Shown here: piece by piece, positions 1-46,096 of the stretch
How positions within the stretch are numbered: position 1 is the stretch's first letter
Layout of the letters: each line of letters begins with the position of its first letter
IMG/VR virus record: IMGVR_UViG_3300045988_105372
Span: 51,462 to 115,461 of that record
Length of the DNA stretch: 64,000 bases
DNA from: a virus
Direction: 5' to 3' (one strand)
The notes under the pieces: generated by a model
What the model saw: only the letters and a program-made list of their open reading frames with translations
What the model was told of the DNA's origin: nothing
The model's database searches: none
Program-made: the position numbers and the translations under genes

Positions 1-380
1 ATACCTTTAGTTCCTACATTACTATTATCATCAATAGTAGCATTAGCAGTATTATCAGACTTTACAAAATTATGAATAAATTTAATATCCCTAGTAGCAT
101 GATTTCTAATATCTTCACGTTCTTTACGATATAGAATATATTTTTTAGCTACGTCATGATACCCTAAATCCATTAGGAGTTCCTCAATTTGGTCTTGAAT
201 ATCCTCAATAGATTGATCTTCAGTCTCTACTACAGAATTAGTTATCTCAGTAACTGCTCTGTAAATATCTTCGTCCATTGTTTTACTAGAATTTTGGGTA
301 ATTCCAAAAGCCTTTAGTACAGCATCTCTAATTTTGTTTCTGTTAAACTCTTCTTTAATTCCGTCTCTCTTTATTACCAT
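1..380 (-). CDS. ATP-cone domain protein, probable ribonucleotide reductase (NrdD-like) N-terminus; partial, continues past window start
   Basis: manual minus-strand translation from ATG at 378-380: MVIKRDGIKEEFNRNKIRDAVLKAF... matches ATP-cone consensus (KRDG..E.F...KI..A); open to window edge. Confidence 0.55.
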   Translation of the reverse strand, partial: MVIKRDGIKEEFNRNKIRDAVLKAFGITQNSSKTMDEDIYRAVTEITNSVVETEDQSIEDIQDQIEELLMDLGYHDVAKKYILYRKEREDIRNHATRDIKFIHNFVKSDNTANATIDDNSNVGTKG

Positions 381-469
381 AAATAACATTTATAAATTAA
401 CATTTTAAATCATCTACGAAATAAGCACTATAATACTAGTACTGAACTAATAATATAGTGCTTATATAG

Positions 470-1813
470 TTATTTCAAAATTAAATTTTTTGTTTCATCT
501 AAAAAAGAGAGTGTATCTATTATTTTAGAATTAGAATAATTATAAGGAATTTCTATCAATTCTAATTTTCCTGGATGTTTACTACATATTTTTCTTAATA
601 AATTATCTCTTCTAATTTGTTTTTGAAAATCTTCTTGACTATTATGAAAAAATGGGATAAATTCATAATGTTGCTTTCCATTATATTCTATTATATAAAT
701 ACAATCATTATGTTTCACTATGAAATCTACTATAATTTTATTAGAATTACGTGCTATTTCCTTAGTCTTTATCTCATATTGAAATTTATATTTACAATGA
801 TATTTGTTTAATAAACTTTTTATAAATAATTCTCCTTTACTAGGCTCTATTTGTTCTCTAGCACATTCAGGGCATTTACACCCCTTTAAATGATTGCCTG
901 GTAATTGCTCAAATTTACCATGCTTTGGGCAAATAATAGTAATTGGAGTTTTATAATTTATATAATTAACTTCGCTATAATCATATTTCCAACCATGAAC
1001 TTCTCTAGCTTTTCTTATAAAATCTTCTTTAGTTAAAGTATAAGATTCTATAGCACAATCTGGACAATATCCATGATGGTATATTAAAGTTGATGCTAAT
1101 ATATTAAAATCTCCATGTTTTGGACAAGTTAAAATTACTGAATTAGTTATTCCAGTATAAACAGTTTTATTTGTAGTATATTCGGGATGAATTTTCTCAC
1201 ATTCTTTAATAAATTCATCTTGAGTAAATCTGAAAGTATTAGTACATTTAGGACATCCATTTTTACAATTTAAATGCTGGTAAGGTAACTACCAAAATTC
1301 TCCATGTTCAGGGCATATAATACAAACTTTTTCTCTACTACCTTTAAAATCTACTTTTGAATAATCAAATTTATAATTATACTTTTCATTAGCAGCTTTT
1401 ACAAAATCCTCTTTGGATCTAATTACTTTAAAATCTTTACTTTTTCCTCGGCATTCCTTACAAGCACATTGTCCTTTTAAATGATTACTAACTGTTTGCC
1501 AAAATTCTCCATGTTCAGGGCATATGATACATACTTTGTTATTAGTGCCCGTATAGACTACTTTGGAATAATCATATTTATTATTCCAAATTTTATTTGC
1601 TTTTCGTATAAAGGTATCTAAATCAAATTTTTTACCTGAACAAATAGCACAACCTCGTCCCTATAAATGTGAATTTGCTTCTTGCACAAACACTCCATGA
1701 ATAGGACATATTATCTTAACTTTATCTTTTGATCTAGAAACTTCTACTAGGGAATAATCATACTTATTTCCATGAATTTCTTGAGCTTTTTTAATAAAAT
1801 ATTCTTTATTCAT
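470..1813 (-). CDS. multi zinc-ribbon protein (5 repeats of YDYSxV...K(V/I)xIICPxHGxFxQ...HLxGxxCxxC) with C-terminal PD-(D/E)xK-like (DUF559/Vsr-like, D...EYNGK) domain; two in-frame TAG codons at 1661-1663 and 1289-1291
   Basis: manual translation: open from ATG 1811-1813 to TAA 470-472 except 2 TAGs falling at conserved repeat positions (HL[TAG]G, EFW[TAG]); track only lists the 82-aa C-terminal fragment 470..718. Confidence 0.6.
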
Positions 1814-1873
1814 CTGTATTATGATTTAGTTAAGATGACTATATATAGATTTGTACAAGAAGCAAATAAATTT

Positions 1874-2668
1874 TTACAAATTTAAAATCTTTTTAAGTAA
1901 TACACATTTTTCAAATTTATTCATAATATCCTTATTATTATCATTTGAAATACCTTCTGTAAAACTATTATAAACATCAAACATTGAAGCTTCTCCATTA
2001 ATTCCTATATAATAATCAGATTTAGAATCTTCAAACATACGTTTATAAGAAGCTATAACTTCAGAAGTAGCTAACTTTATTTTACCAAAACCATTATCTT
2101 CAAATTCAGTTATAGCTTGTCTTACCCAATATCCTAAACTGATATTTATGTTAGATTCTGAGGTATTAAATTCAGTATTTTTCAAAGTTTTAAGGAAAAT
2201 TCCCAATGAATCAGTAGCTTCTACTAAAGTTTTTACAGGAGAATAATCCACAGGTTTATCAGGAGATAATTCAGAAACTCTTATATAACTAGGATTAAAT
2301 ACACACATATTTAAACATGCCATATTTAATCCTGTTCTAAAAAACTTTATTATAGGTTTTCTAGTATCTAATCCATATAACATATTTATAGTTTCTTTAT
2401 GATTATCTACTGAATATTCATTTGGTAATACTGCTTCTAACCATACTCTATTAAAAGTTAAATCAGCAGTATCTATATCACCATTTTTATTATAAGTGAT
2501 TTGATCAGGTAATTTTACATGTACTCTAATATCAGAAGTTAATTTTTGAACTCTTTCTAGAAAAGGCTCAATATATCCTCTAGTAGGAAGATAATCTTTA
2601 CCTTTAATACTAGTAGCTTTTCCTTTTAATACTTCTTCTAAAGTAAATTCAGTTGGCATTCTCTCCAT
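1874..2668 (-). CDS. hypothetical protein (264 aa)
   Basis: ORF track; member of tightly packed minus-strand array. Confidence 0.5.
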   Translation of the reverse strand: MERMPTEFTLEEVLKGKATSIKGKDYLPTRGYIEPFLERVQKLTSDIRVHVKLPDQITYNKNGDIDTADLTFNRVWLEAVLPNEYSVDNHKETINMLYGLDTRKPIIKFFRTGLNMACLNMCVFNPSYIRVSELSPDKPVDYSPVKTLVEATDSLGIFLKTLKNTEFNTSESNINISLGYWVRQAITEFEDNGFGKIKLATSEVIASYKRMFEDSKSDYYIGINGEASMFDVYNSFTEGISNDNNKDIMNKFEKCVLLKKILNL

Positions 2669-2885
2669 TGTATGTGAAAAACATTATGTTATCAATAATT
2701 TCTTTATCTAATAATTTTTGTACTAAATTATGCGGAGTATCTTCGGCATAATTAACTTTGTTTATATCTACACTAGTAATATATATCCACTTACTCCCGT
2801 TGTATAATATTTGCCCACAGGGATATGAATTTTTATAGCAGATAAGTAGTGTCTTGTTATCTTTAGTAATTTCATTAGTTACCAT
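2649..2885 (-). CDS. hypothetical protein (78 aa), overlaps downstream gene by 20 nt
   Basis: ORF track. Confidence 0.35.
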   Translation of the reverse strand: MVTNEITKDNKTLLICYKNSYPCGQILYNGSKWIYITSVDINKVNYAEDTPHNLVQKLLDKEIIDNIMFFTYNGENAN

Positions 2886-3499
2886 CTTAATGTAGTGAGA
2901 AACTCTTCATCAGATACTTCTTCAAAGTCTCCGTCTCCGTAAATAACATCTGAGATATTATATTCTACTATTTTAAACTCTGGTTTGCCATGACTATGCC
3001 AATATTCTGTAACATATTTTGCATTACAATTGGGACTAGGACCTAATGCAATACTACAAGAAAATTTATTAGTTTCATAGCAATGTCCTTTATAAAAGTT
3101 TTGACATTTCTTTATATAGTCAATAATAGTATTAACTTCTTCTGGGCAAGTAATAACTTCTTTTAGTGGGAGAACTTTTTTATAATCTCTATAAGCAGGT
3201 TTATCAGGAGTAGCTTCTTTATAATCATCTTCTATACCTCCTTCTAAGAGTTGCTTAATTAATATTTCAAAAGTATCATCCCAAGTATCCTTAATACCAT
3301 ATGCATACATATAAGTATCTCTTATATAATTAAAATTATCTTGAGATAAATAATGTCTAGCATATAAAGGATCTTTCTCACTATCTTTAAATCCATTCTT
3401 AATAAACTCATCCAAATCTATAGAAGGCTGAGCCCATCTATACATTTCTACAAAACACTTATGTAAAGCTTCCTGTAAAACATCTTCTCTATCAATCAT
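2879..3499 (-). CDS. hypothetical protein (206 aa)
   Basis: ORF track. Confidence 0.5.
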   Translation of the reverse strand: MIDREDVLQEALHKCFVEMYRWAQPSIDLDEFIKNGFKDSEKDPLYARHYLSQDNFNYIRDTYMYAYGIKDTWDDTFEILIKQLLEGGIEDDYKEATPDKPAYRDYKKVLPLKEVITCPEEVNTIIDYIKKCQNFYKGHCYETNKFSCSIALGPSPNCNAKYVTEYWHSHGKPEFKIVEYNISDVIYGDGDFEEVSDEEFLTTLRW

Positions 3500-3776
3500 C
3501 GTTGTTAGTATAAAATTCTAATAATTTAAAACTATCTGCTATATGTTTAATATCTATTAATTCATTGACTACTTCTAATAATGTATCTTTACATGTATCA
3601 AATTGAGCATTATCTATATTGTCATAAAAATACCACAACTCGGTATCTGAGCAATATGAAATTCTTCCTACAGCCATACCTTCTTTGTAAACAATAATTA
3701 TGCCTTTATAATCATCAGTAATAGCTGCTAAGTCTATAGTGTGTTCACTATTTTTAGGAATAGTAATATATTTCAT
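3492..3776 (-). CDS. hypothetical protein (94 aa), tandem paralog of 3780..4043
   Basis: ORF track; shared architecture IxL..T.D.SIDxSAI...GII.AYK...G.I.Y....EW.Y.D.I and C-terminal ADSFKLxxF. Confidence 0.5.
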   Translation of the reverse strand: MKYITIPKNSEHTIDLAAITDDYKGIIIVYKEGMAVGRISYCSDTELWYFYDNIDNAQFDTCKDTLLEVVNELIDIKHIADSFKLLEFYTNNDD

Positions 3777-3779
3777 TAT

Positions 3780-4043
3780 TTAAAAATCAACTAATTTAAA
3801 ACTATCGGCGTAATTACTAGCTATTACGTTTCTTAGTAAAGCTAATAAATTTTCGTTTCGTTTGTAACTACAGTTTATAGTAATATCATCTAAGTATACC
3901 CACTCATTATTATCATCGTCATATCCAATAAATCCTATTGGTTTATTACCTTTGTATGCTAAGATAATACCTTCAGTATTTGTATCTATAGCAGAGATGT
4001 CTATAGATTTATCGGATGTTTCTGGAAGTCTTATGTCCTTCAT
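3780..4043 (-). CDS. hypothetical protein (87 aa), tandem paralog of 3492..3776
   Basis: ORF track; paralogy visible by eye. Confidence 0.5.
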   Translation of the reverse strand: MKDIRLPETSDKSIDISAIDTNTEGIILAYKGNKPIGFIGYDDDNNEWVYLDDITINCSYKRNENLLALLRNVIASNYADSFKLVDF

Positions 4044-5569
4044 TAATTATTTCCTTTAATAGTTCCCATCAAAATATCTTTATCTTTTACAATAGTATAA
4101 TTAATACTCCATTTAGTATGTCCAAAATTAGCTGTAATATAATTACTACTACCATACATACTACCTACTGATATATAATCAAATCGTTTACCAGTAGTAT
4201 AAGCATAATTATGTAAATCACCTTTTACTACATAAATATGAGGACTACATATACCTTTTTCTGCTATATAATTAGCAAAGAATAATTCAGTCTGAGGATT
4301 TAAAGTAAGAGGAAATTGTCTAGTCTGAGAATTATTATCTTTACCATGAGCATATAGGAACTGATGATCTCCAATGATAAAGTTATCAATAGGATAGTTA
4401 CTAATATAACTCTTAATATTATATTTAGTTAAATATGCAGCTAAGAGTTTTTGATTTAACCATTCAAAATCCCCACCATGATTAGATTCTCCTATAGAGA
4501 GATAATTAAAATCTTCACTTTTTACTTTTACTGTAAGAGTAGCAAAAAACTCCATCATACACTCTATAAATGCTTCACTAATTTCTTTATTATCAAGAAT
4601 CTCAGGAAGCTCATGACCTCCTCTAGTAGTTTCTTTATTGAACCCATCAATAGAATCTCCAAGATTAACTACATATACAGAATGATATTCTTGTCCCACA
4701 AAAGATTCCACAATTCTAGATAATCTAGATTTAATTTCTGGAACATCATAAGAAGGTAACTGTACAAAACTACTATATTTAGCATTATAAGCTCCAATAT
4801 GTAAATCAGATAACCATATAATTAAATCAGGATATTTTGCTTCTTTATTATTAATATTTACTGGAAGCTCTTTATAATCCTTTACTGTATTTTTAATAGT
4901 ATCTTCTATAAGTTCCTTATTTAAAGACTTAGAGGTTTCCTTAGTTAACTTAGTAACTAAAGCTCTTAAATCCTTTACCTCATCTTTCTCTATTCTTTTT
5001 AAGAAATCATTCTCTTTTTCCCTAAGATGCATTTCTTTTAATTCATCCTCAGTATATTCTTCATACATATGAGGAGCAAATGGAGAGGATGCTTTAGTAA
5101 TATTAAAAGCTCGTAAAATTCTTTTAAAGTCAATAAGAGAATAATCTGGGAAATATCTGCTGACAATCTGCTGGGTTAAACCAGAACCGTAATAAGTATA
5201 CATTCTATATACACTATTCATTTCGTTTCTAGTAAAGACTCCTGTGATTGCGGGCTTATTTCTTCTGAAAATCTCAAACTTATATCCAGTAATTTTACCA
5301 GTCTCCTCGTCTCTTATTTCCCAAGTATTAGAAGCATCATCCGTATCTTTCTTTACTTCTTTTTTCTTAGTATCCTTTAGTCTATCATATAATTCCAATA
5401 TCTTCTTATCATCTTCATCTTTATTTTCTTTCTTTCTAAGATTTCTCATTGTAATATATACAGTATTTATATTTTTTCCTGATATAGTACACTGAGCTTT
5501 TAAAGAACGATTATTATTAATTGCATCATTAAAGAACTTAATATAAGAAGATTTTGTTGCTTGTTTCAT
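4043..5569 (-). CDS. calcineurin-like metallophosphoesterase domain protein (508 aa)
   Basis: motifs LSDLHIG (DxH), NLGDSIDG (GDxxD), ESNHGGD (GNH[DE]-like), YAHGK, GDLHNY in C-terminal half. Confidence 0.6.
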   Translation of the reverse strand: MKQATKSSYIKFFNDAINNNRSLKAQCTISGKNINTVYITMRNLRKKENKDEDDKKILELYDRLKDTKKKEVKKDTDDASNTWEIRDEETGKITGYKFEIFRRNKPAITGVFTRNEMNSVYRMYTYYGSGLTQQIVSRYFPDYSLIDFKRILRAFNITKASSPFAPHMYEEYTEDELKEMHLREKENDFLKRIEKDEVKDLRALVTKLTKETSKSLNKELIEDTIKNTVKDYKELPVNINNKEAKYPDLIIWLSDLHIGAYNAKYSSFVQLPSYDVPEIKSRLSRIVESFVGQEYHSVYVVNLGDSIDGFNKETTRGGHELPEILDNKEISEAFIECMMEFFATLTVKVKSEDFNYLSIGESNHGGDFEWLNQKLLAAYLTKYNIKSYISNYPIDNFIIGDHQFLYAHGKDNNSQTRQFPLTLNPQTELFFANYIAEKGICSPHIYVVKGDLHNYAYTTGKRFDYISVGSMYGSSNYITANFGHTKWSINYTIVKDKDILMGTIKGNN

Positions 5570-5640
5570 ACTTTTTTAAAAATTAGATAGCTGTTACGCC
5601 TTTATAAATAAAAGTATCTAGTAAAATAAAAGGTATCTAA

Positions 5641-5677
5641 ATTAAAAAAGGCAGATACTCTCGCGAGCACCTGCCTT
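5641..5677 (-). terminator. rho-independent terminator (stem AAGGCAG/CTGCCTT, then U-run on minus strand)
   Basis: hairpin 5648-5677 with A-run 5642-5648 on plus (U-run in minus sense), upstream of 5700..6380 start and downstream of 6473..6832... placed between genes. Confidence 0.5.
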
Positions 5678-5699
5678 ACTTTAAAAATTATGAATAAAA

Positions 5700-6380
5700 T
5701 TAAAATTCCAAACCAAAGAACATATAGCGACCATTCTTAGTACTCTTAGATGGAGTATAAGTTACAGTAGCTACTACTGGGTCAGAGCCAATAGACTCCT
5801 TACCCTGAACGATATCGATCTGACCCTTAAAGCCCTTCTTAATAAGTTCCTTAGCCATTTCCTTAGCTGCGGTCTTAGTAGGACGAATAACCTTTGTATC
5901 TGGTTCAACACGACCAGTATCGTTACCATCCTTATCAAGAATTGCTTCACCAGCCTTTTCGTTCTTTACACGCTCAGACTTCAAAGTCTTCAGTACTTCC
6001 TTTGTATCGTGGTCTACCAAATCAAACTTCTTCTGAGTATCACGCTTACCCTCAGTCTTAATATCAACAACCTTCCAAGGACGCTCACGTGTACTTACAA
6101 CAGCACTAGAAAGAGTTACAATGAAACCACTACCAGGAGCATTCTTAGTCTTTTTCTTCAAATACTCCAGCTTAAATTCCTTCTCATCATTAGAAGTTAC
6201 TTTAGCATTCTTCTCATGGAACTTCTTCCATGCCTGTGTTGCATCACCATTAATATGAAAATTCTCTTTCTCTACCTGTGCTACTGCTACTTCCTTTGTT
6301 TCTGCACTTACTTCAAAACTCTTAAAATTAAAAATTTCACTCATTTTCAAAAATATATTAACATTAATTCTTATTATCAA
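5700..6380 (-). CDS. hypothetical Lys/Glu-rich protein (226 aa); locally GC-richer than surroundings
   Basis: ORF track; composition. Confidence 0.5.
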   Translation of the reverse strand: MIIRINVNIFLKMSEIFNFKSFEVSAETKEVAVAQVEKENFHINGDATQAWKKFHEKNAKVTSNDEKEFKLEYLKKKTKNAPGSGFIVTLSSAVVSTRERPWKVVDIKTEGKRDTQKKFDLVDHDTKEVLKTLKSERVKNEKAGEAILDKDGNDTGRVEPDTKVIRPTKTAAKEMAKELIKKGFKGQIDIVQGKESIGSDPVVATVTYTPSKSTKNGRYMFFGLEF

Positions 6381-6472
6381 ATCATCTGCGATGTTTTTTC
6401 TTTATCTTTGTAAGGCTAATATAATCTATATTTTTTGCCTCCAAAAAGAAAATTATAAAAAAATTAATTTTT

Positions 6473-6832
6473 TTAGAATGGAAGAAATTTTCCCATTAAT
6501 TCTCTTATTTTTGTTGGCATATCTTTTGGTTGCACGCCAAATGTTGGAAAATCGGTACATCCATATGAAAAATCCTCAGTGATGATAGCAATAGCTTGTA
6601 TTGTATCTTCATCAAGACCTGTTTTTTCTGCTAATTTAGCAGTTACTTCATAATAAGTAACTCCAGGTTTTTTCTTCTTCATAGAATTTACCATATATCC
6701 AAGTAATGATATAAGTGCAAATTTTAAATTTATACTTTCCCCTAAAGACCCTAAACTAAAGTATTTACGATATAAATCGGAAAGTTTAGTATAATCAGGT
6801 CTCTTGAGTAATTCCGAATCCCTCATAACCAT
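6473..6832 (-). CDS. hypothetical protein (119 aa)
   Basis: ORF track. Confidence 0.45.
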   Translation of the reverse strand: MVMRDSELLKRPDYTKLSDLYRKYFSLGSLGESINLKFALISLLGYMVNSMKKKKPGVTYYEVTAKLAEKTGLDEDTIQAIAIITEDFSYGCTDFPTFGVQPKDMPTKIRELMGKFLPF

Positions 6833-7841
6833 GCATACAATAGAATGCTACTAATTTAAGAAGATGAGTAAACTCTTTAAATCCTTTATTAAAAAGTTCT
6901 CTAGTCATAGGAACTACTTTAGTATTAAAATTTGGAATAGTTTCTACTACTAAGAAATTACTTCTAATTTTAGGATTCTCAATGTTATAATTCTTCTTAG
7001 CAGCCATAGTTAATAACCAACTATATAAAGCCATCTCTCTATAATAGTGATATTTAATAAGAGCTCCTTTAGCAAAGTTATTTATTAAATCTCCTGTGGT
7101 TTTTAAATCATTTACAGTGATTATTCCTTCTTCTTTATCTATACTATAATTATCAAGTTTAGACTTAATTTTTAGTATAAAAGGTTTATGCTCTGGAGCC
7201 TCTACTAAAACATCTATAAGGAAAGCTATCTCATTACCAATAATTGGTTGTTCTAGTAATCCTTCAGGGTTTAGTAAAGATTGAATTTGCGTATCACTAT
7301 CTAGAGACTCTAGACAGACTTTCAGTTTAGCATGATTTTTAGGATCTGTAAATATTGGTGTTCTAGCATCATTATTTTCTTTTTCAAAAGCTTTTCTATC
7401 ATACCAGTATTGAGCACAGTCTGCTAACACTTTTTCTATTTTTTTATCTGACATTTTATCTTTATAATAATCGCATTTATCAGATGCTTCTAATATAATA
7501 TCATTAGTAACATTGATACCTTGTGTTTTCTTATAAATATAGTCTGCCATTGACCCCATTTTAGCAGTAGGTCTGCTAACATCTGTTAGAAAGAAGTCAT
7601 CAGGTTGTAAAACTAAAGTATGTAACCAACTACCAAATTCCAAACTAGTTGTATTTAACTTAGTCTTACCCCAATTATCAAAGAACTCTGTTGGAGAACC
7701 ATCTTGATCTGGATTTATCTTAGATAATCTAGAGTTTGAGATATAATTATTATACTTTTCTGAGAAATAAGTATTATCATCAATATCTTCAACTCTTAAA
7801 GTCTCTATCAGAGGTTTAATAGAAATTTGACTTAATTTCAC
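6795..7841 (-). CDS. hypothetical protein (348 aa)
   Basis: ORF track. Confidence 0.5.
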   Translation of the reverse strand: MKLSQISIKPLIETLRVEDIDDNTYFSEKYNNYISNSRLSKINPDQDGSPTEFFDNWGKTKLNTTSLEFGSWLHTLVLQPDDFFLTDVSRPTAKMGSMADYIYKKTQGINVTNDIILEASDKCDYYKDKMSDKKIEKVLADCAQYWYDRKAFEKENNDARTPIFTDPKNHAKLKVCLESLDSDTQIQSLLNPEGLLEQPIIGNEIAFLIDVLVEAPEHKPFILKIKSKLDNYSIDKEEGIITVNDLKTTGDLINNFAKGALIKYHYYREMALYSWLLTMAAKKNYNIENPKIRSNFLVVETIPNFNTKVVPMTRELFNKGFKEFTHLLKLVAFYCMHGYEGFGITQET

Positions 7842-8352
7842 GTAAGTAATTGTTAAAGTCTTCCGACTCTTTTATACATTCATACCCATATTCTATCTCT
7901 TCTTTATCTAAACTATAAATCTTACCATAAGGACCCCATTTTTCATTAGATTCAGAAGCTATTAATAAGCAAGGCAATCCTGCTAGATTCATCTGAATAA
8001 AATTACTAATAGAATCATCAATGAAAATATCAACTCTACCTTTTATATACCGAGCTTTATTAGCACGCTGGCACAAGACTTGATAAACAGGTTTACTAGG
8101 ATAACCATTATTCTTTAGCCATGTTTTACTATAGTCTTTATTGCATACTCTTTTAGTACAATATAATTCAGGTATAAAGTTTATTTTATTTTTTATTGGA
8201 AGATTTATCCACCATTCTCTGTCTTTTATTAAAACTTGTTGTACATTTTTTGTTATTTCTCCATCAGACTTAGGATATCCAAATCTTTTTAAATATGGAT
8301 TCATAAACTCATTTAATGTATCATCTAAATCTAAACCAATTCTTAATTTCAT
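7816..8352 (-). CDS. HAD-superfamily 5'(3')-deoxyribonucleotidase-like protein (178 aa)
   Basis: N-terminal MKLRIGLDLDDTLNEF = HAD motif I (DxDxT). Confidence 0.55.
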   Translation of the reverse strand: MKLRIGLDLDDTLNEFMNPYLKRFGYPKSDGEITKNVQQVLIKDREWWINLPIKNKINFIPELYCTKRVCNKDYSKTWLKNNGYPSKPVYQVLCQRANKARYIKGRVDIFIDDSISNFIQMNLAGLPCLLIASESNEKWGPYGKIYSLDKEEIEYGYECIKESEDFNNYLREIKSNFY

Positions 8353-8594
8353 AGATTAAATAATTCCTCAATATCTCTTATATATGTTACCCCAATACCT
8401 TTCTTAGCCAATTCAGCTCTGATATTTATCCAGCTATCATTGTTATCAAGAATAGCATATGTATCATCGTCTAAATTTAAGTACTTATCAACTTCTTCTT
8501 TAGCCTTTTCAACAGCTTCCTCATATGAAGATGCAGTTAACTTATGAAGTTTATTTTTATTACTCTGACAAATTGCAAAAATATAATTATTCAT
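8349..8594 (-). CDS. hypothetical protein (81 aa)
   Basis: ORF track. Confidence 0.4.
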   Translation of the reverse strand: MNNYIFAICQSNKNKLHKLTASSYEEAVEKAKEEVDKYLNLDDDTYAILDNNDSWINIRAELAKKGIGVTYIRDIEELFNL

Positions 8595-8779
8595 TTGGTA
8601 TTGTTATATATAATTATCATTATAATAATAAATAATATCATTATGGTAATTGGGAGTGATAAAAATATTACCACTGCTAATGTTATCCAACTCCATAACA
8701 ATATTCCAAAAATCTTAAGTAAAATTAATATTGTACTTATTATAAAATCTATTACTCCTAAGGCTAATAGTTCTCTCAT
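8591..8779 (-). CDS. small hydrophobic membrane protein (62 aa)
   Basis: ORF track; two hydrophobic helices. Confidence 0.35.
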   Translation of the reverse strand: MRELLALGVIDFIISTILILLKIFGILLWSWITLAVVIFLSLPITIMILFIIIMIIIYNNTK

Positions 8780-9285
8780 ATTAAATTATTACTTTTAGAA
8801 TAACATTCTAATAAAGTATAAAAGAAATCCATAGGAATCATTGCTATTGCTCCTGGACTAACACTACCTTCTGTTGGAGCCTTCTTCCAGCATAGCACAA
8901 ATGACTTGTCCTTATAAGGGCAAGAATTTTCTATCTTAAAATATGCTGGAGTATTAGCAGTATGTTTTGCTTGAATATTTATAGGTAATTTTCCAGACCT
9001 ATCAATTATATCAACTTTATTATTATCTGTAAACTTACTCTCTCCTCTAGCACTTACACACTCAGTATACCCCATATCTCTAAGATGATGAATTATATCT
9101 GCTTCCCATGCACTTCCTTTATTTCTAGATTTTTTAGCTTGATAACTCTTTTTAGTATGGCTATCTATCCATTCATATAAAGTGCCATCAGCCATTTTTC
9201 CAGATTTATTACATCTAATTTTAAGAGCTGCTTGACTTATTTTAGTTTTCTCAGAGCATTCCTCTATAGATGTATAATCGTGCAC
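8776..9285 (-). CDS. hypothetical protein (169 aa)
   Basis: ORF track. Confidence 0.45.
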   Translation of the reverse strand: MHDYTSIEECSEKTKISQAALKIRCNKSGKMADGTLYEWIDSHTKKSYQAKKSRNKGSAWEADIIHHLRDMGYTECVSARGESKFTDNNKVDIIDRSGKLPINIQAKHTANTPAYFKIENSCPYKDKSFVLCWKKAPTEGSVSPGAIAMIPMDFFYTLLECYSKSNNLI

Positions 9286-9331
9286 ATCGCCGTTTTTATA
9301 TGTTATTCTAATAGCAGTATTCAGATTCTAA

Positions 9332-10342
9332 TTACTTTTTGACATAGTTACTTAATTTTTTTATATAATACTTTATAAATTTTAAAGTATTCTGTCGACC
9401 ATATTTTTTATAAAAATCACTTATATCTTTTACTTTGAATTTATGAGGTATAAAGAAATAAAGTAATTCTGGATGATTTCTTCTTATCTTAGCCATATTA
9501 AACATTCCAGGTCTATCATTATCATAAAAAGTTACTATATAAGTAAATCTTTCTTTTAGATCATTTAACATATTTTCAGACAACCATTGTGTTTCACTAT
9601 TTGGAGCACAGGCTGTTACACCTAAACCTCTTAAACACATAGTATCCTTCATACTTTTAGTTATAACTAATAAAGTACCTTTTTTAGGTAACTGACTATA
9701 ACCCTGAACCTTTTTAGAGGGCCAATTTGTTAGAAATCTATATTCTTTACGTTTAGGATAATAAATTCTCCACAATTCTTTACCTTGCATTGTTCCTCCA
9801 TAATATCCGAAGATAAAGTTATCTTTGGTCTTTATAGTTTGAATATTACCATTTAAAAATACAGTACGACAAGAATATACTTTATATTTATTTAGTAATT
9901 CTAAAGAAACTCCTTGTTTACCCCACCATTTTAATTCATCTTCTGAGAAATCTTTTATTTCTACTCGTATATCTGCTGGCTCATTTGTTTTAACAAAAGA
10001 AGTGCTTGATTGTATTACAGAATGATAATTATTTTGTCCTTTTAATAAGCCAAAATCTTTAGCTATAATATCTAATGCTTGATGGTATTTACAAGCATAT
10101 TTAGTCATAACTACAGATATAAAGTTTCCATAAAAGCTCCCATTAAAATCATGGAATATAAGTTCTCCTTTAGAGTTACGAAAAAAGGAAGCCGTAGGAT
10201 TTTTATCTTTACGTAAAGGATTACAAATTAATTTTTTTGAAACTTTTACGCCAAGATAATACTCCATATAGGCTTCCTCTGTGTTATATTTAAGTAAGTA
10301 GTCCTTAGTAATATCTGGTTTATAAGAAAAATCTAATTCCAT
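9332..10342 (-). CDS. DNA primase (Toprim domain) (336 aa)
   Basis: LLVITKSMKDTMCL and FYDNDRPG resemble Toprim E and DxD motifs of DnaG-type primases. Confidence 0.55.
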   Translation of the reverse strand: MELDFSYKPDITKDYLLKYNTEEAYMEYYLGVKVSKKLICNPLRKDKNPTASFFRNSKGELIFHDFNGSFYGNFISVVMTKYACKYHQALDIIAKDFGLLKGQNNYHSVIQSSTSFVKTNEPADIRVEIKDFSEDELKWWGKQGVSLELLNKYKVYSCRTVFLNGNIQTIKTKDNFIFGYYGGTMQGKELWRIYYPKRKEYRFLTNWPSKKVQGYSQLPKKGTLLVITKSMKDTMCLRGLGVTACAPNSETQWLSENMLNDLKERFTYIVTFYDNDRPGMFNMAKIRRNHPELLYFFIPHKFKVKDISDFYKKYGRQNTLKFIKYYIKKLSNYVKK

Positions 10343-10365
10343 AAAAACTACTTACTTTATAATTA

Positions 10366-11136
10366 CTACATATCCGCCAGCATAGCATCGAAGTCTTCAT
10401 CTTGAGCCTCCTTGCCTTCAGTAGAGTCAATAGATTTAGCCTCTTCTGAATCAGCTGCTGGTACAGGAGTAGTAGGCTTACGCTTCTCCATATCCTCTTT
10501 CTGCTTAATCTCATAACTAGAGAATGACAATTTATCTTCCTCTAAGCTAGCAAAATTATCACGGATATAGAACTGTCCATCACTATTAATAGCTCCAATA
10601 TCAGGAATCTTAGCAAATACATTACCAGTTTCCTTTGAAATTCCCTTTTCATCCTTTTTCTTTTCCTTACGACCGCTAAGCTTTAAATAAAAGTTTTTAT
10701 TCATACAATGCTTAGTCAATACTGCCTGGAAAAGCTGCATGAATTGGTCAGTACTCTTACAAGCAGGAGCTTTAGTTATAAACAATTCTTTAGCTTTATC
10801 ACCACCTACTACTGTTATAATATGCAGCATAAAACCTTTAAGCTGTTCAAATGCTGAAGGAAGTACATATGGGAATTCTACGCCCTTAGAATCCTTTCTC
10901 TTACCCTCATATCTTTTAGCAGAACTTTCATTAGGATAAAACAATGATTCTTGATAAGTTCCTTGCTCTCCTTCAAAATGAAGTACCAGAGATTTCCAAG
11001 TTGTATTAGGGTCTTGCTTACCTTGACCCTCCTTAACTTCTATACTTTTTAACTGAACGAGATAAATTCCATAAGGACGAAGACCTTTCTTACTTGTAGG
11101 ATTAATATCACCAAGACCACCAAAATTTAAATTCAT
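10366..11136 (-). CDS. hypothetical protein (256 aa), acidic C-terminus (possible ssDNA-binding protein)
   Basis: ORF track; acidic tail DEDFDAMLADM typical of SSBs; weak. Confidence 0.45.
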   Translation of the reverse strand: MNLNFGGLGDINPTSKKGLRPYGIYLVQLKSIEVKEGQGKQDPNTTWKSLVLHFEGEQGTYQESLFYPNESSAKRYEGKRKDSKGVEFPYVLPSAFEQLKGFMLHIITVVGGDKAKELFITKAPACKSTDQFMQLFQAVLTKHCMNKNFYLKLSGRKEKKKDEKGISKETGNVFAKIPDIGAINSDGQFYIRDNFASLEEDKLSFSSYEIKQKEDMEKRKPTTPVPAADSEEAKSIDSTEGKEAQDEDFDAMLADM

Positions 11137-11148
11137 ATTGCTATATTA

Positions 11149-11754
11149 TTAAAGATTATCGAAATTAAAATCATTATCTGAGATTTCTGTATCATCTGCG
11201 TTGCCGTCAATAAGACTAGCCATTTCGTCATCTAATTCATCTTCTGATGCAATATCCTCTGCTTCAGGAACTACATCTTCTTTAATCTCAGGCTCTCGAT
11301 TACCTGTTAATATAAACAATCCATCAATTTTAGGATGTGGAGTGAAAGTAAACTCATTACCATGCTCAGCAAGGTTCTGGTTATTCTTTCCTCTATATGA
11401 AACTGCATTCTTCTGAGTTAATTTATTACCTGACTGCGTACCAAATGTTTCAGCAGCTCCGATAACTAAGCACTCCTTCTTATTAAGTTTCTGCTGTTTA
11501 ATGTCTACCTTATCTCCTGGTTCTACACCAAGAGCCTCAACAGCAGCCTTATTAAGAATATACTTATTCTCCTCAAGAATTAATAGTGGATTAGGATTTG
11601 TATCATCTACTTCTGAATCTTTCTTTTTAGAAGAAGACTTACGAGTAGACGGCTTCTTTACAGAATCATCTTTCAATTCACGTGTATCAGTAAAAATTTC
11701 TCCAGTTTCTTCATTAAGCCACTCGGACTTAATTGTCATTTTAATTAGCTTCAT
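11149..11754 (-). CDS. hypothetical protein (201 aa), acidic termini
   Basis: ORF track. Confidence 0.45.
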   Translation of the reverse strand: MKLIKMTIKSEWLNEETGEIFTDTRELKDDSVKKPSTRKSSSKKKDSEVDDTNPNPLLILEENKYILNKAAVEALGVEPGDKVDIKQQKLNKKECLVIGAAETFGTQSGNKLTQKNAVSYRGKNNQNLAEHGNEFTFTPHPKIDGLFILTGNREPEIKEDVVPEAEDIASEDELDDEMASLIDGNADDTEISDNDFNFDNL

Positions 11755-12496
11755 TTAAAATATTGTCATCATTATTGGTTTCATTATGGTCATCTGCGAT
11801 TTCTTCTTCTTCCTCACCATATTCAAAGTTATGGATAGTATCTAAAACCTTCTGCATATTAGGTTCAATCAGTTTATCTTTAAAACATCCATCAACACTA
11901 CGACAAGTATCATTACCATTGGTTTTGGTTCTAAAGAAATAACTAATATTGCCCTCATCATCAACCTGACGTTCAGTATATAAAATATAAGAAAATAAAC
12001 CATCAATATTTACAGTTCTATCCAACATTTTACCACTAGAATATAACTGCCAATGTTCATCGAGGTCAGTACCAGCATTAATAATATGACTAATGAATAC
12101 TACATTAAGATCTTCACGCAGTTCACTAGCTTCCATGATTAAATCATAGTAATTTTTAGCAAACACAACGTGCTTATCCCAACCTTTTTCAAGGGCAGAA
12201 TCCATTATATTATTTGAAAGACAATAGTTAGCATCATCTACGACTACTGTCTTAATATCAGAACGTAATTTATCAATAATCTTTAACCACTTACCAATAG
12301 TAGTATAATCATTAGACACAAGCCAATTTCCAACTGGCTTCTTATTTACAACTTCAGCTTTCTTGTACTTACGTCTAAATCCAGGAATTTGAAGTTGCTT
12401 GTTAGTACAACTAATGATAAATGTTGATTTATAATCTAAATAACGCAAAGAAGTGCTTTTTCCGGTACCACTCAAACCTGCTAAACCAATAATCAT
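11741..12496 (-). CDS. P-loop NTPase (251 aa), Walker A GLAGLSGTGKST at N-terminus
   Basis: Walker A at residues 4-15; kinase-like or RecA-like. Confidence 0.5.
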   Translation of the reverse strand: MIIGLAGLSGTGKSTSLRYLDYKSTFIISCTNKQLQIPGFRRKYKKAEVVNKKPVGNWLVSNDYTTIGKWLKIIDKLRSDIKTVVVDDANYCLSNNIMDSALEKGWDKHVVFAKNYYDLIMEASELREDLNVVFISHIINAGTDLDEHWQLYSSGKMLDRTVNIDGLFSYILYTERQVDDEGNISYFFRTKTNGNDTCRSVDGCFKDKLIEPNMQKVLDTIHNFEYGEEEEEIADDHNETNNDDNILNEAN

Positions 12497-13575
12497 AAAC
12501 TATAGTCTAATTTATTTTTCACTTTTTCATCTTTATCTTCATTCTTTATTGTATTATCTGTTGAACTGTTATTTGTAGCTCGATATCTAGAATAATCAAA
12601 GATTTCTTCTGGCTTAGGCATTTCCATCCACTTATTTACTGCTCCGTCAAAGAAACAGCAATCAGCTACTTGGTTTTCTCCATATCTTGACTTTAGTACA
12701 AGAATACTTCGAAACCTATAACCCATTTCTTTAACTTGGTAACCTCTATAAGTTGTTCTTTTATCAACTTGAGGATTATATACAGCTAAAATAATTTCAG
12801 AATTCTCTGAAACAGTGGATGTTTCCTTAATATCCTCCACCATTGGCTCCATGAAAGCTTCATTCTTTTTTCTTTCCATGTTAGCCACTGCTCTATTGGA
12901 TTGCATAACAATAATTGGAGATAATCCTGTTTTATTTCTAATGATAACTAATTTATTAGTATAATCATCAATTTCTCCTTTTCTGTTTCTTCCATTGGAT
13001 GGTTGGATCAATCCAACATGGTCAGTTACTGAAAGTATTACTTTTTCAGGGTCTTTCGGAATATATTTATTCTCTGTAAATTCTCCTTCTTTTTTAAGCT
13101 CTTCCATTGTAACTTTTATGAGCCTATCAGAATTAAAAGAGCCTTCGTATATAGTTAGTACTTTATATACTTTTTCTAGCCAATCATATCCTAGTTGTAC
13201 ATACTCATATAAATCATCAGGTAAAATATAATCTTTACCTATAGATAATATTTGTTTAGCAGTTACAACAATATGATAGGTATCATATAAATAGGTACTT
13301 AATAATTTAGCTATAATAAAGTCTTCTTTCATTTCAAGAGCAAAGAAAATAATTTTTAATTTATTATCTTCTAAATGTTCTTTTAAAGGAGCATATATGT
13401 AAGAATATAATACACATGAACTTTTACCTTGTCCTGAACTCGCAAATAAAAGAGTCATGGTACTTTTAGTAATACCTCCTATTAATTCTTCCAATTTAGG
13501 AAGACCCATACTAAATCCTTGATTAAATCCTTGTCTACCAAGCTCTATCGAACGTTTAAAACTTTCTAAACTCAC
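12493..13575 (-). CDS. DnaB-like replicative helicase C-terminal (RecA-fold) domain protein (360 aa)
   Basis: Walker A LLFASSGQGKSS, Walker B-like ILSVTDHVGLI. Confidence 0.5.
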   Translation of the reverse strand: MSLESFKRSIELGRQGFNQGFSMGLPKLEELIGGITKSTMTLLFASSGQGKSSCVLYSYIYAPLKEHLEDNKLKIIFFALEMKEDFIIAKLLSTYLYDTYHIVVTAKQILSIGKDYILPDDLYEYVQLGYDWLEKVYKVLTIYEGSFNSDRLIKVTMEELKKEGEFTENKYIPKDPEKVILSVTDHVGLIQPSNGRNRKGEIDDYTNKLVIIRNKTGLSPIIVMQSNRAVANMERKKNEAFMEPMVEDIKETSTVSENSEIILAVYNPQVDKRTTYRGYQVKEMGYRFRSILVLKSRYGENQVADCCFFDGAVNKWMEMPKPEEIFDYSRYRATNNSSTDNTIKNEDKDEKVKNKLDYSL

Positions 13576-14261: not shown

Positions 14262-15392
14262 TCAGAATCTAAAATCAAATTTAGGAACTATCTTTTCACC
14301 TGGGGTAAAGTCTTTACCTTGTAATACTTTATCCAATTCTGATTCGTCTATAGTTATAAAAGAATCTCCCTTATGAGAATCATAAAACCACTTGGTCTCT
14401 TGAGTCCTATTTAATACTATATTGAATATCTCTGCTGTCTTACCTTTTTCAAAGCGGATTGATCTTCCTCTCCGTTGACAAGCTCTAGTAGTTGAACTAT
14501 CTAATCCAAATATAATAGCTACAGAAAGACCTTTTACATCAAGTCCTTCATCAGCTTTTTTTACTGTAGATAATAGAGTCACCTTTCCAGAGTTAAAATC
14601 TTCAATAGCTGTAGCACTTCTTTTCTTAGAAGTTCTACTAGAATATACAGTAGCATTAGGAATTTTTTCTGCCATTTTAATATTATTAGCAAAAGTTATT
14701 ATTTTTTTATCCTTTCTAGCTTCTATAATTTTCTTTACTATTTCAATTTTCTTTGAATGATTATTTATGAAAGCTTTTTTCTCATGCATAGTAGACCAAA
14801 ATCTGATAGCATGATAATTTATATTTTGCAATACTTCAGATTTTTTGTTAGGATCACTACACATAGAATCTCTTAGGAGTAGTTTATTTCGCCAACCCAT
14901 AGGACCGGCTAATTTATTAACTAACTCCCAAGAGAATCCGAAGAATTCAAAATGAGAAATGAATTCTTTATTTATTTTTTCATATTCTTCTAAATCATCA
15001 ACATTTACTAAGACTAGATATTCTTTATATGGGCTAACCCAACCATTTGCAAGACAAGTATTAATATCAATAGTATCAATTACTGGACAGTATTTTGCTA
15101 ATATTTTATCTCTACCATCAAGACGCTCAAAAGTAGCTGTAAGACCTAAGATAAATTGGTATTTTACTACTTCAAATAATCTTACAAAAGTCTCAGCTGC
15201 ATATCTATGCGCTTCATCCAGTACTAAAAGATCATATTTGGCAGGATGTTTTATTACAGTGTTTATTATTTGTACATCACAACTTAATCCTAGCCCATTA
15301 GAATCTATATGACCACACCATTGTTTTTGTAAAGTTTCTGTTGGCACAATTATTAGTACTCGATATTGTGGAAAGTGTTTTAACACTGTTTT
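14262..15392 (-). CDS. SF2 (DEAH-box/SNF2-like) helicase, C-terminal exon/segment carrying KT of motif I, motifs Ia (LIIVPTETL), II (LDEAH), III (TATFER), V, VI (QRRGRSIR)
   Basis: ORF track 14262..15386 begins with GTG; in-frame extension AAA ACA (K T) gives ...KTVLKHFPQYRVLIIVPTE; motif I N-terminal part lies 350 nt upstream. Confidence 0.6.
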   Translation of the reverse strand, partial: KTVLKHFPQYRVLIIVPTETLQKQWCGHIDSNGLGLSCDVQIINTVIKHPAKYDLLVLDEAHRYAAETFVRLFEVVKYQFILGLTATFERLDGRDKILAKYCPVIDTIDINTCLANGWVSPYKEYLVLVNVDDLEEYEKINKEFISHFEFFGFSWELVNKLAGPMGWRNKLLLRDSMCSDPNKKSEVLQNINYHAIRFWSTMHEKKAFINNHSKKIEIVKKIIEARKDKKIITFANNIKMAEKIPNATVYSSRTSKKRSATAIEDFNSGKVTLLSTVKKADEGLDVKGLSVAIIFGLDSSTTRACQRRGRSIRFEKGKTAEIFNIVLNRTQETKWFYDSHKGDSFITIDESELDKVLQGKDFTPGEKIVPKFDFRF

Positions 15393-15741
15393 AATACAGT
15401 TTAGTCCTACTCTGGATTTCGATTTTGTTATCGTATAGTTTTTTATCTATACTTCTTACTATTACTAGCAAGTCCCGCATAAATTTTTACCCACTTATTT
15501 CAGTTGGGGTATCGAACACTCGTGGAGAAATTATATTCTAATGAAAATAGTCTAGCTATTAACTAGATTATTTATTAGTTTCATTCTCTATGCTGTACGG
15601 TGTAGAAGATTCTTTAATTTCTTCTATTACCTCGGTATTACCCTCTATAGGGCTTTCACCGATTTTGCTCGATGATAATTCCGAAGATTCCTCTATCGGA
15701 ACGGCATCGTAATTAACAGGTATATGACCCGCTTTTACAGT
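15393..15741 (-). other. ~349-bp intervening element inside helicase Walker A (between GFG and KT codons); candidate intron or other insertion
   Basis: upstream ORF ends ...GTIVASTGFG then loses helicase similarity; downstream resumes KTVLKHF; flanked by ACTGTAAAA / ACTGTATTAAAA direct repeats; contains R/S-like CCAGAGTAGGACTAAAC. Confidence 0.35.
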
Positions 15742-17192: not shown

Positions 17193-17400
17193 TAATATGG
17201 TAATCCTTTTTCAAGGCGTAAATATTATTTATCAATTTTTAGTAATTTTAGTTATCTAGGATTATAATTTCTGCATCCATACTTAGCAAAATTACATTTA
17301 AGCATGCCCATATTTACTAAGCATTTATATCTTTTACAATTCTTACAATCTCTATCTGGAAATTTAAATTTCTTACCGTCAGTATCCTTTATGTAAGTAT

Positions 17401-17766
17401 CTAATGTATTAGAGCACATATTATAGATAATATACTTATACCTCCAAATAAATAATTCAATTTTGATAATTTTTTATTTTGTATATACAATTCATTATTT
17501 TTATCAGATTGAATCTTTATTTGATAATTTTTATATGTTAGCGTACTATCCAGCGTATTTACTAAAGATTTGTAGTTATTTATTTGAATTTTTTGTAGAC
17601 TATCATTTACTAGTAAATATTTATGCTCATTAAAAATAAGATTAGTTATTTTTAATTGATACGGTGTCAATAAGAAGTTTTCTCCCGACTTCTTGAATGT
17701 AGTTTGTGAAAAACTGCATGTCGCTATCAGGAGACTGCTTAATAATATTGTCCTTCTCTTTAACAT
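17401..17766 (-). CDS. putative secreted/lipoprotein (start trimmed to MLKRRTILLSSLLIATCSF signal peptide)
   Basis: ORF track 17401..17814; signal-peptide-like N-terminus from internal Met. Confidence 0.4.
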   Translation of the reverse strand: MLKRRTILLSSLLIATCSFSQTTFKKSGENFLLTPYQLKITNLIFNEHKYLLVNDSLQKIQINNYKSLVNTLDSTLTYKNYQIKIQSDKNNELYIQNKKLSKLNYLFGGISILSIICALIH

Positions 17767-17974
17767 AGATAGTTTTATTATAGTAGATAGCAGTATCACA
17801 CTTATCGATATCAACTTTAATAGAATTTTTCTTACTATTTAATGAGTCTATTTTTCTTTCTAAGGTATCTGTAGGCATTACAGTAGTAGATTTAAACCCT
17901 TTATATAAAAAGATAGTAGCTCCTATAATAGTAATAAAAATTAATATTAAAATTAATCTATCTAAAAGTTTCAT
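17642..17974 (-). CDS. membrane-anchored hypothetical protein (110 aa)
   Basis: ORF track; N-terminal TM helix; 3' end overlaps next gene by ~125 nt in another frame. Confidence 0.4.
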   Translation of the reverse strand: MKLLDRLILILIFITIIGATIFLYKGFKSTTVMPTDTLERKIDSLNSKKNSIKVDIDKCDTAIYYNKTIYVKEKDNIIKQSPDSDMQFFTNYIQEVGRKLLIDTVSIKNN

Positions 17975-34150: not shown

Positions 34151-34182
34151 AAAAACAAATAATAAAAACAGTTCTATGAACT

Positions 34183-34300
34183 AGTGGAGCATTGGAGAGT
34201 CGAACTCCAGTCTTGCATATTTGCATCAAAACGTTCTTACAGCATAGGTTTTAAAGACTATCCTTGTCTGTTAGGGTTGACAAGATTAGCATTGCCAACT
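34183..34300 (-). ncRNA. tRNA-like element: perfect T-arm TGGAG-TTCGACT-CTCCA and 3' acceptor-like ATGCTCCA but no canonical D/anticodon arms
   Basis: manual inspection; lies in 650-nt non-coding region. Confidence 0.25.
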
Positions 34301-36553: not shown

Positions 36554-36555
36554 AA

Positions 36556-37352: not shown

Positions 37353-37354
37353 AA

Positions 37355-37732: not shown

Positions 37733-37737
37733 ATTAA

Positions 37738-40788: not shown

Positions 40789-40833
40789 AAAGCCTTAACT
40801 TACTTTCGCTCATTCTGTGTCGTGGAGGTTGTA

Positions 40834-46093: not shown

Positions 46094-46096
46094 TAA

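Follow-up and report, generated by a model that had tools for sequence, protein, structure and literature searches.

The DNA analysed here is a 64,000-nt stretch of viral origin (positions 51,462 to 115,461 of the IMG/VR virus record IMGVR_UViG_3300045988_105372), referred to below as the window. It has a GC content of about 30% and carries almost all of its genes on the minus strand. Close to its left end lies a 447-codon gene (470-1813) for a predicted endonuclease whose coding frame is interrupted by TAG codons, and this gene is the subject of the present work. Reverse translation of 470-1813 gives an ATG at 1813 and a TAA at 470-472; the internal stops of the frame are exactly two, and both are TAG. 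A plus-strand reading of the same interval was rejected, as nothing longer than 64 amino acids (aa) is found there. The gene lies between an nrdD-like anaerobic ribonucleotide reductase gene on the downstream side and a gene for a 264-aa protein on the upstream side. Farther upstream comes a 508-aa exonuclease-like gene (phrog_284), a slot that is held by homologs of ~505-520 aa in related loci, and further along are genes for a DnaB-like helicase, a helicase C-terminal domain, a PDDEXK-like protein, NAMPT and an AAA ATPase. Distant homologs of the DnaB-like protein are found in crAss-like phages of Bacteroides and Flavobacterium. Based on the gene content, the DnaB-like homologs and the 173-kb size of a contig that bears the gene, the phage is a large crAss-like (Zeta-like) gut phage. 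The coordinates of the main features are collected in Table 1.

Table 1. Features of the endonuclease locus, the suppressor tRNA and the recoded block in the window, and the ribonucleotide reductase genes of related loci.
Sequence	Feature	Position	Strand	Details
Window	nrdD-like anaerobic ribonucleotide reductase, 5' end (ATP-cone)	1-389	-	phrog_487, E 2e-15; immediately downstream of endonuclease gene
Window	Strong hairpin just past the endonuclease stop	421-462	-	-26.3 kcal/mol, z -5.6; also in genomes without the gene
Window	Predicted free-standing homing endonuclease gene, coding sequence	470-1813	-	447 codons; TAG predicted to be read as Gln at codons 51 and 175
Window	Segment absent from empty-site genomes	482-1872		1391 bp; gene plus 60-nt upstream spacer
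Window	Predicted C-terminal Vsr-like / PD-(D/E)xK nuclease domain	494-850	-	D363, E376, G379, Q381, H382 and D403 invariant
Window	Five tandem DUF723 (CapR-like) zinc-finger modules	857-1813	-	~aa 1-60, 62-123, 131-192, 195-255, 259-319
Window	TAG2, codon 175	1289-1291	-	'EHGEFW*LPYQ'; in the 'EHGEFW-Q' motif of zinc finger 3
Window	TAG1, codon 51	1661-1663	-	'ANSHL*GRGC'; just before the CxxC knuckle of zinc finger 1
Window	Swapped/co-converted flank, 3' part of the 264-aa gene	1873-2345	-	Likely location of the target site
Window	264-aa gene	1874-2668	-	Upstream neighbour of endonuclease gene
Window	Predicted amber suppressor tRNA(CUA)	58646-58941	+	Exons 58646-58680 and 58904-58941; read by hand
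Window	Heavily TAG-recoded block, four ORFs	59466-63878	-	9, 9, 16 and 9 TAGs
L004	Ribonucleotide reductase genes	7393-10620		
L005	Ribonucleotide reductase genes	7326-9677		
L105	Ribonucleotide reductase genes	10218-13535		
L107	Ribonucleotide reductase genes	3461-6065		
L109	Ribonucleotide reductase genes	9727-13068		

Between 1 and 59 kb of the window, the endonuclease gene is the only long open reading frame (ORF) with an internal TAG. The 64 standard-code ORFs of at least 100 aa in this region use CAA or CAG 296 times and contain no internal TAG. The original prediction, made from the sequence of the window, had placed the gene beside nrdD and replication genes, within a region that otherwise conforms to the standard code, and this is what we find. 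The glutamine (Gln)-type codons of the endonuclease gene are 12 CAA, 1 CAG and the 2 TAGs. When the repeats of the gene are aligned with each other, TAG1 pairs with the K of repeats 2 and 5 and TAG2 pairs with the Q of repeats 1, 2 and 5, in agreement with the earlier claim that both fall at Q/K-type positions. No paralog of the gene was found elsewhere in the window.

At the right end of the window the four ORFs of the recoded block together use 43 TAG, 15 CAA and 1 CAG codons, TAG making up 73%; this genome therefore decodes TAG as sense. An intron-containing tRNA(CUA) had been predicted within the same window, and it is present at 58646-58941. Its 223-nt intron (58681-58903) lies between the anticodon positions U35 and A36, the anticodon stem GAAGA/TCTTT enclosing CUCU before and AAA after it. 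With the intron removed in silico, the sequence is recognised by ARAGORN as a canonical 73-nt tRNA(cta); on the unspliced sequence the same program misses the gene when run without intron search and mislabels it as His(atg) when run with it. The intron thus hides the suppressor tRNA from standard tRNA finders. It contains group I core motifs, allows a U.G pair of a P1 helix to form at the presumed 5' splice site, ends in G and gives a weak match to the Rfam group I intron model (16.9 bits, E 0.1), which suggests a group-I-like intron. The origin of the suppressor as a recent copy of the tRNA-Gln(UUG) of the window was rejected, the two being 57% identical. Directly upstream of the suppressor tRNA there is also a 100-aa ORF with two in-frame TAGs (58147-58449, plus strand), which sits in a short plus-strand island between the standard-code and the recoded blocks.

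The N-terminal part of the protein is built of five zinc-finger repeats, as originally predicted. Pfam matches DUF723 (PF05265) over five stretches (E 3e-17; 62.7 bits against a gathering cut-off of 20.9), and the AlphaFold model of P0001, a 98%-identical protein (pLDDT 90.5), consists of five helix/beta-hairpin/short-helix modules followed by an alpha/beta domain. A C-x2-H...C-x2-C signature is found in each of the five repeats across 25-39 homologs, with the Cys residues invariant. C36/H39/C55/C58 recur in every repeat as an invariant set, and the His of repeat 4 is nearly invariant, being replaced by G, C or R in a minority of homologs. The N-terminal 320 aa gave no NUMOD match in Pfam. Fingers of the DUF723/CapR type are known as DNA-binding modules (Barth et al. 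2023, PMC10448857), and by analogy we infer that the array binds DNA.

The invariant residues of the C-terminal domain (Table 1) are conserved across the same 25-39 homologs, and its local motif reads 'VDF...IEYNGKQH...RRD'. The closest solved fold to this domain is the homing endonuclease I-Bth0305I, with other PD-(D/E)xK enzymes ranking lower, and a Vsr-like PD-(D/E)xK fold is supported by the model. Foldseek with the full-length model gave weak PD-(D/E)xK matches only. Neither the single sequence nor the family profile, nor the C-terminal domain searched by itself, gave a meaningful sequence match in the PDB; PF04480 (DUF559) and PF03852 (Vsr) were not matched in Pfam even at E values up to 10, and the sole Pfam match of the C-terminus was DUF2726, at 19.8 bits under its cut-off of 24.7. 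The resemblance to Vsr/DUF559 is confined to the fold and the local motif. Accordingly, of the DUF559/Vsr-like PD-(D/E)xK module proposed in the original prediction, the fold and the motif stood and membership of the two Pfam families did not. In PHROGs the protein is assigned to phrog_559 and phrog_681, both annotated as endonucleases, and to phrog_7140 ('intron encoded nuclease'); the name that PHROGs gives to this Vsr-like family is 'HNH endonuclease'. The protein family is very large and uncharacterised, with more than 8000 database matches, and our literature search found no paper on this gene or on the activity of its protein family. The combination of five modular zinc fingers with a small Vsr-like nuclease may be of interest as a scaffold for programmable nucleases.

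Three other assemblies carry the gene: L002 (Logan), L111 (ENA OPNW01000004, the 173-kb contig) and L003 (a partial contig). Their copies allow the two TAGs to be followed in independent assemblies. The gene is 98.4% identical to the window in L002 and, within the gene, 97.6% identical in L111; both TAGs are kept in these two, and TAG2 is kept in the partial L003. Searches of IMG/VR with two patterns spanning the TAGs gave no further copies of the gene; in the metagenome collection the TAG1 pattern gave no copies and the TAG2 pattern gave one, which was L111. P0001 represents a 90%-identity protein cluster of 382 member sequences; it has Q at both TAG sites, but only because the gene calling behind it translated TAG as Q.

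Homing endonuclease genes often degenerate once they are fixed, and the locus might accordingly be a decaying pseudogene, an end-of-cycle homing endonuclease gene with two nonsense mutations. Besides this general tendency, a 4-nt frameshifting insertion in the L003 copy and a 1-nt indel that alters the last residues of the window copy would fit such decay. The pattern of substitutions speaks against it. Between the window and L002 there are 14 synonymous and 7 non-synonymous substitutions, with a ratio of non-synonymous to synonymous rates (dN/dS) of 0.11 (p 1.6e-6 against neutrality); the segment between the TAGs has a ratio of 0.06 and the one beyond TAG2 a ratio of 0.15. When the window, L002 and L003 are compared together, codon position 3 accounts for 28/36 variable sites (p 6e-8), and for 20/25 of those after TAG2, so that the strong third-position bias extends past both TAGs. 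The comparison of the window with L111 gives 26/31 substitutions at this position. No TAA, TGA or frameshift is found in the window, L002 or L111, and both stops are the one codon that the genome has recoded, for which the chance with two random nonsense mutations in the gene is p ~0.035-0.04. The identical TAGs in independent assemblies, the 382 members of the protein cluster and the otherwise intact state of orthologs with 6-10 TAGs are equally hard to reconcile with decay, and we consider a pseudogene very improbable.

The TAGs could also be real stops, in a split gene or a programmed truncation that yields a 50-aa peptide and a nuclease from an internal start. Gene calling under the standard code does yield two ORFs in the frame, namely codons 1-50 (50 aa, 1661-1813) and codons 366-447 (82 aa with a GTG start, 470-718). 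However, neither the 123-codon middle segment nor the initial 190 codons past TAG2 is opened by an ATG, GTG or TTG, and both of these segments are under purifying selection. In the 50-aa product the zinc site would be missing its CxxC half, the 82-aa ORF begins past the catalytic D363, and orthologs carry TAGs at many other positions. The original prediction had looked to orthologs truncated at the first TAG, with an independent downstream start, as the mark of a split gene; the orthologs instead read through 6-10 TAGs. A split gene is, in our judgement, hardly credible.

The residue inserted at TAG was examined in the alignment of orthologs. Wherever a column contains TAG in some ortholog, Q makes up 40/142 cells (28%) of the remaining orthologs against a background of 2.9%, a ten-fold enrichment, and in four TAG columns Q is found in every ortholog without TAG there. 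For the two TAGs of the window, whose ortholog residues the original prediction had proposed to check, the outcome was divided: at TAG1, all six orthologs without TAG have Q, and L004 also has TAG, whereas at TAG2 the orthologs have T or C. From these alignments, together with the published code-15 proteomics of crAss-like phages (PMC9523058), TAG is inferred to be decoded as Gln here. The pseudogene and split-gene readings are rejected because the TAGs are kept, selection acts across them, no restart is available and TAG behaves as Gln. The same frame, conservation, selection and lack of a restart, along with the cognate tRNA(CUA), bear out the earlier proposal that translation of the gene depends on TAG decoding.

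The segment 482-1872 is missing from 17 genomes that are otherwise 95-98% identical to the window on both sides. These are MT835492, the one close relative in GenBank (97% identical to window positions 1-481 and 96% to 2346-8000), and 16/16 IMG/VR contigs of 28-181 kb that were retrieved by the 30-mer ending at the left junction; the endonuclease gene is present in L002, L003 and L111. The insertion point lies between the stop codon of the 264-aa gene and the hairpin common to both allele types. Next to the insertion, a stretch of 420-470 bp that makes up the 3' part of the 264-aa gene differs strongly between the allele types: alleles with and without the endonuclease gene share only ~67% nucleotide identity and 44% amino acid identity there, whereas the gene-bearing genomes are 97% identical to one another. 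A search for the donor of this swapped part gave none, the part being about equally distant (39-46% aa identity) from all sampled lineages. An extra A at 488-494 (~codons 441-443) distinguishes the window copy from those of L002, L003 and L111 and turns the C-terminus '...ETKI*' into '...ETKNLILK*'; the frame of the window copy thus ends in backbone sequence that is common to the genomes without the gene.

All distant lineages that were sampled have a homolog at the corresponding position, between the 264-aa gene and a ribonucleotide reductase gene. The endonuclease is 56-61% identical in amino acids to these distant orthologs, compared with 44-52% for the 264-aa gene, 35-38% for the 508-aa gene and 38% for the nrdD N-terminus. 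The precise presence and absence of the gene, the swapped flank and the higher conservation of the gene than of its flanks strongly support a free-standing homing endonuclease gene that would spread with co-conversion of its flank. The description 'homing-endonuclease-like' in the original prediction is upheld by the presence/absence polymorphism with its swapped flank. The adjoining ribonucleotide reductase itself varies between lineages, occurring as nrdD, nrdD with an intein, nrdD with a GIY-YIG intron, a class II enzyme and a class II enzyme with a LAGLIDADG intron (Table 1); the locus is a hotspot at which mobile elements insert and genes are replaced.

A persistent slot is also what would be expected of a domesticated nuclease that serves the phage in competitor exclusion, host DNA degradation or recombination, with the TAGs tying it to the late programme. 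The homolog in every sampled distant lineage, the strong purifying selection and the exchange of the adjoining ribonucleotide reductase between nrdD and class II types would all be in keeping with such a role. On the other hand, 17 near-identical genomes are without the gene, which is hence dispensable, and an endonuclease more conserved than its flanks fits lateral spread better than vertical domestication. Nothing in the data points to a host-DNA target, and the host-DNA nuclease that the original prediction had offered as an alternative found no support. Domestication is thus unlikely.

The use of TAG in the endonuclease gene recurs in related phages, as judged by gene calls made under a TAG-sense code. 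The syntenic endonuclease of L004 has 10 TAGs and its 14 neighbouring genes have none (Fisher p 1e-8); that of L005 has 8, against 1 in 17 neighbouring genes (Fisher p 8e-7). In L107 there are 6 TAGs in the syntenic endonuclease, and its 15 neighbours have 1 in a GIY-YIG intron endonuclease and 1 elsewhere. The TAG of the GIY-YIG enzyme, whose intron lies in the nrdD of L107, is at the conserved YVGQT motif. The TAG share of Gln codons in the endonuclease gene is 13% in the window, 29-48% in L107, L005 and L004, and 0% in four other lineages.

These data bear on a further explanation, in which the gene is functional and its TAGs are decoded and regulate nothing, a late need or weak selection having admitted CAA/CAG-to-TAG changes by neutral drift of the late code. 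The TAG positions differ between orthologs and lie mostly at variable columns, the TAG share ranges widely between lineages (0-48%), and TAG is the majority Gln codon of the late genes, suggesting a general TAG pressure where it is tolerated. Drift leaves unexplained, however, why the 64 early ORFs with their 296 Gln codons have no TAG, unless the endonuclease is expressed later than they are, and later expression would still mean that the code marks a different timing. Nor does it account for the second, unrelated endonuclease (GIY-YIG), which is TAG-bearing in the same kind of block. We regard neutral drift as a real possibility that nevertheless falls well short of being the expected one.

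Taken together, we think it quite probable that 470-1813 is a functional, mobile endonuclease gene that is decoded through its TAGs. It would be written in the 'late' code of the phage, with its two UAGs read as Gln by the phage tRNA(CUA), and this tRNA would be made only after the group-I-like intron has been spliced from its anticodon loop. In the absence of suppression the ribosome would stop at codon 51, leaving the first zinc site incomplete and making no nuclease, so that the full-length nuclease would appear only once the spliced suppressor is present. The enzyme would then cut the gene-less allele within or close to the 3' end of the 264-aa gene, and the gene would spread by repair of the break during co-infection. 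It is likely that the TAG dependence confines production of the endonuclease to the phase after the code switch. That this timing effect is adaptive, as a delay or a dose limiter, rather than neutral may be so, and we place it somewhat below an even chance. The 'deliberately delayed' nuclease of the original prediction would correspond to this adaptive form, whereas what the data themselves show is the dependence on TAG decoding. The broadest form of the proposal is tentative and, in our own estimate, rather doubtful: that selfish nuclease genes in recoded crAss-like phages are systematically written in the TAG = Gln code even in standard-code early blocks, with the code switch as a timer or containment device gated by self-splicing of the suppressor intron.

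Several observations weigh against a functional gene timed in this manner. TAG makes up only 2/15 (13%) of the Gln codons in the endonuclease gene as compared with 73% in the late block, so that the block to translation would be modest and could be leaky. The syntenic orthologs of L086/087, L088, L105/106 and L109/110 have no TAG; for L086, L088, L105 and L109 the sequence covered was ~17 kb around each gene, and these phages could be of either code. The 4-nt insertion in L003 may mean that some copies are decaying, or it may be an assembly error. At the sequence level, no link of the nuclease domain to Vsr, DUF559 or the I-Bth0305I structure (PDB 3r3p) was found, and the group I assignment of the suppressor intron depends on a weak Rfam score, a hand-drawn P1 and the terminal G. 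No promoter was recognised, either by a sigma-70 and terminator scan or from sequence motifs. The Bacteroides-type promoter motif TTTG-N17-22-TAnnTTTG is not enriched in the window (2 against 1.7 expected) and is visible upstream of some orthologs; the motif 'TTGTAYAAA' is likewise not enriched in the window.

The locus offers a clean natural test case for the hypothesis of stop-codon reassignment as a post-transcriptional timer, since a single dispensable TAG gene stands in a 59-kb standard-code block. Premature expression of a nuclease could plausibly be harmful, the phage population contains both gene-bearing and gene-less alleles, and similar use of TAG is seen in no fewer than four related lineages as well as in a second family of endonucleases. 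Under the broadest form of the proposal, endonuclease genes that cross between standard-code and recoded relatives would have to gain or purge TAGs, and codon reassignment would then be both a barrier to and a recorder of the flow of mobile elements. For annotation, block-wise code predictors and standard-code gene callers shatter genes of this kind.

Other features of the window concern its translation apparatus and its variable elements. Five genes of the early block end in TAG (10363-11145, 17389-17838, 36535-36855, 37349-37771 and 40810-41577, all minus), and each has a TAA or TGA 1-7 codons further on. Such tandem back-up stops are consistent with active amber suppression during infection and have been described for Zeta crAss-like phages (PMC12386605). 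Two paralogous tRNA genes (48478-48561 and 48991-49072, both minus; 54 and 47 bits with the Rfam tRNA model) have anticodon stems that enclose loops of 19 and 18 nt instead of 7; ARAGORN calls one Tyr(ata) and the other Stop(tta), the latter with an assumed 11-nt 'intron'. They may be tRNAs with a short intron or an expanded loop, possibly including another suppressor. A type II tRNA-Leu(UAA) at 46016-46689 (minus) is split between U34 and A35 by a 587-nt group-I-like intron that shares the core 'AATAGTCCAGACTACAA' with the suppressor intron and holds a tRNA-like T-arm; ARAGORN gives Phe(gaa) for the unspliced gene and Leu(taa) after splicing in silico. The tRNA-like gene at 45797-45869 (minus) has a 6-nt anticodon loop (CGTAGA) and no anticodon assigned by ARAGORN. 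There are also a RAGATH-1 hammerhead ribozyme at 54772-54856 (minus; 75 bits against a gathering score of 56) and a phage-encoded transfer-messenger RNA at 34182-34517 (minus) with the tag peptide ARVINMTPVSYAIAA. The helicase frame at 14262-15455 (minus) stays open over 397 codons, lacks an ATG upstream of codon 185 and matches Helicase_C by its C-terminal half only; an intron or some other element may have split the gene. Upstream of the endonuclease locus, two paralogous genes of 94 and 87 aa (3492-4043) are absent from L111 (3563-4041) and only 69-82% identical in MT835492 (L001), and form another variable cassette in a backbone that is otherwise 96-98% identical.

Among characterised nucleases, the nearest in architecture are the EDxHD enzymes, which combine an N-terminal DNA binder with a C-terminal Vsr-like nuclease, as in I-Bth0305I (PDB 3r3p), and in which the phage 'Hef'-type endonucleases have been placed (Taylor et al. 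2011, PMC3239194). The order of a DNA-binding N-terminus and a Vsr-like C-terminus is the same in the present protein, and both are phage-borne, the EDxHD family being both intronic and free-standing (PMC3239194). Conserved acidic and His residues are also common to both, with D363, E376, H382 and D403 as the putative equivalents of the E-D-x-H-D set. The DNA-binding parts differ, with five DUF723/CapR-type zinc fingers here and NUMOD2/helix-turn-helix motifs there. Furthermore, our predicted nuclease has no detectable sequence similarity to 3r3p, Vsr or the Pfam Vsr/DUF559 families. F-CphI was dropped as a Vsr-like comparator, as the literature shows an Endo VII motif in it.

Zinc fingers of the DUF723/CapR type have been described as repeated and shuffled DNA-binding modules of phage homing endonucleases, and genes of the T5orf172 endonucleases, with their CapR/DUF723/DUF4397 arrays, sit at boundaries of genetic exchange between phages (Barth et al. 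2023, PMC10448857). The present protein has the same repeated DUF723-type fingers, and a boundary from 96% to 67% identity abuts its gene. It differs in its C-terminal Vsr-like catalytic domain, as T5orf172 is GIY-YIG-like, in the longer array of five repeats and in being encoded by a recoded gene. In T4-like phages, the free-standing seg and mob homing genes spread by 'intronless homing' with localized marker exclusion; their nucleases are of the GIY-YIG and HNH families, and their expression is delayed or limited via promoters and mRNA structure, not codon reassignment. The intergenic position beside nrd genes, the presence or absence between close relatives and the replacement of the adjacent flank are alike in the two cases, whereas the nuclease family and the suggested control by codon reassignment instead of promoters and mRNA structure are not.

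Block-wise recoding of TAG to Gln (code 15) is established in crAss-like phages (Yutin et al. 2021, PMC7886860; Peters et al. 2022, PMC9523058; PMC12386605), and block-wise TAG/TGA recoding, suppressor tRNAs, introns and inteins are known from the Zeta-like group (PMC12386605, PMC7886860). The phage studied here resembles them as a large (173 kb) gut phage of ~30% GC with many tRNAs, introns and inteins, with TAG as sense in its late genes, a replication block in standard code and early TAG stops backed by TAA or TGA. Unlike in those phages, where the code changes by blocks, a single exceptional gene stands inside a standard-code block, and the suppressor tRNA is split by a group-I-like intron.

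The closest precedent for the proposed timing comes from the Agate phages, in which an early gene holds a group I intron whose endonuclease shows a preference for TGA; it was proposed that the in-frame stops prevent production of the endonuclease until late infection (Borges et al., bioRxiv 10.1101/2021.08.26.457843). In both cases, a homing endonuclease in the early standard-code region of a stop-recoded gut phage uses the recoded stop. The codon is TAG read as Gln here and TGA read as Trp there, the gene is free-standing and intergenic here and intron-encoded there, and the nuclease family and the phage lineage differ. The present locus adds selection tests, empty-site alleles and recurrence of the pattern in four lineages. 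The same logic has thus already been proposed for a TGA-recoded intron endonuclease, and the gene described here is its TAG-recoded, free-standing, Vsr-like counterpart in a crAss-like phage.

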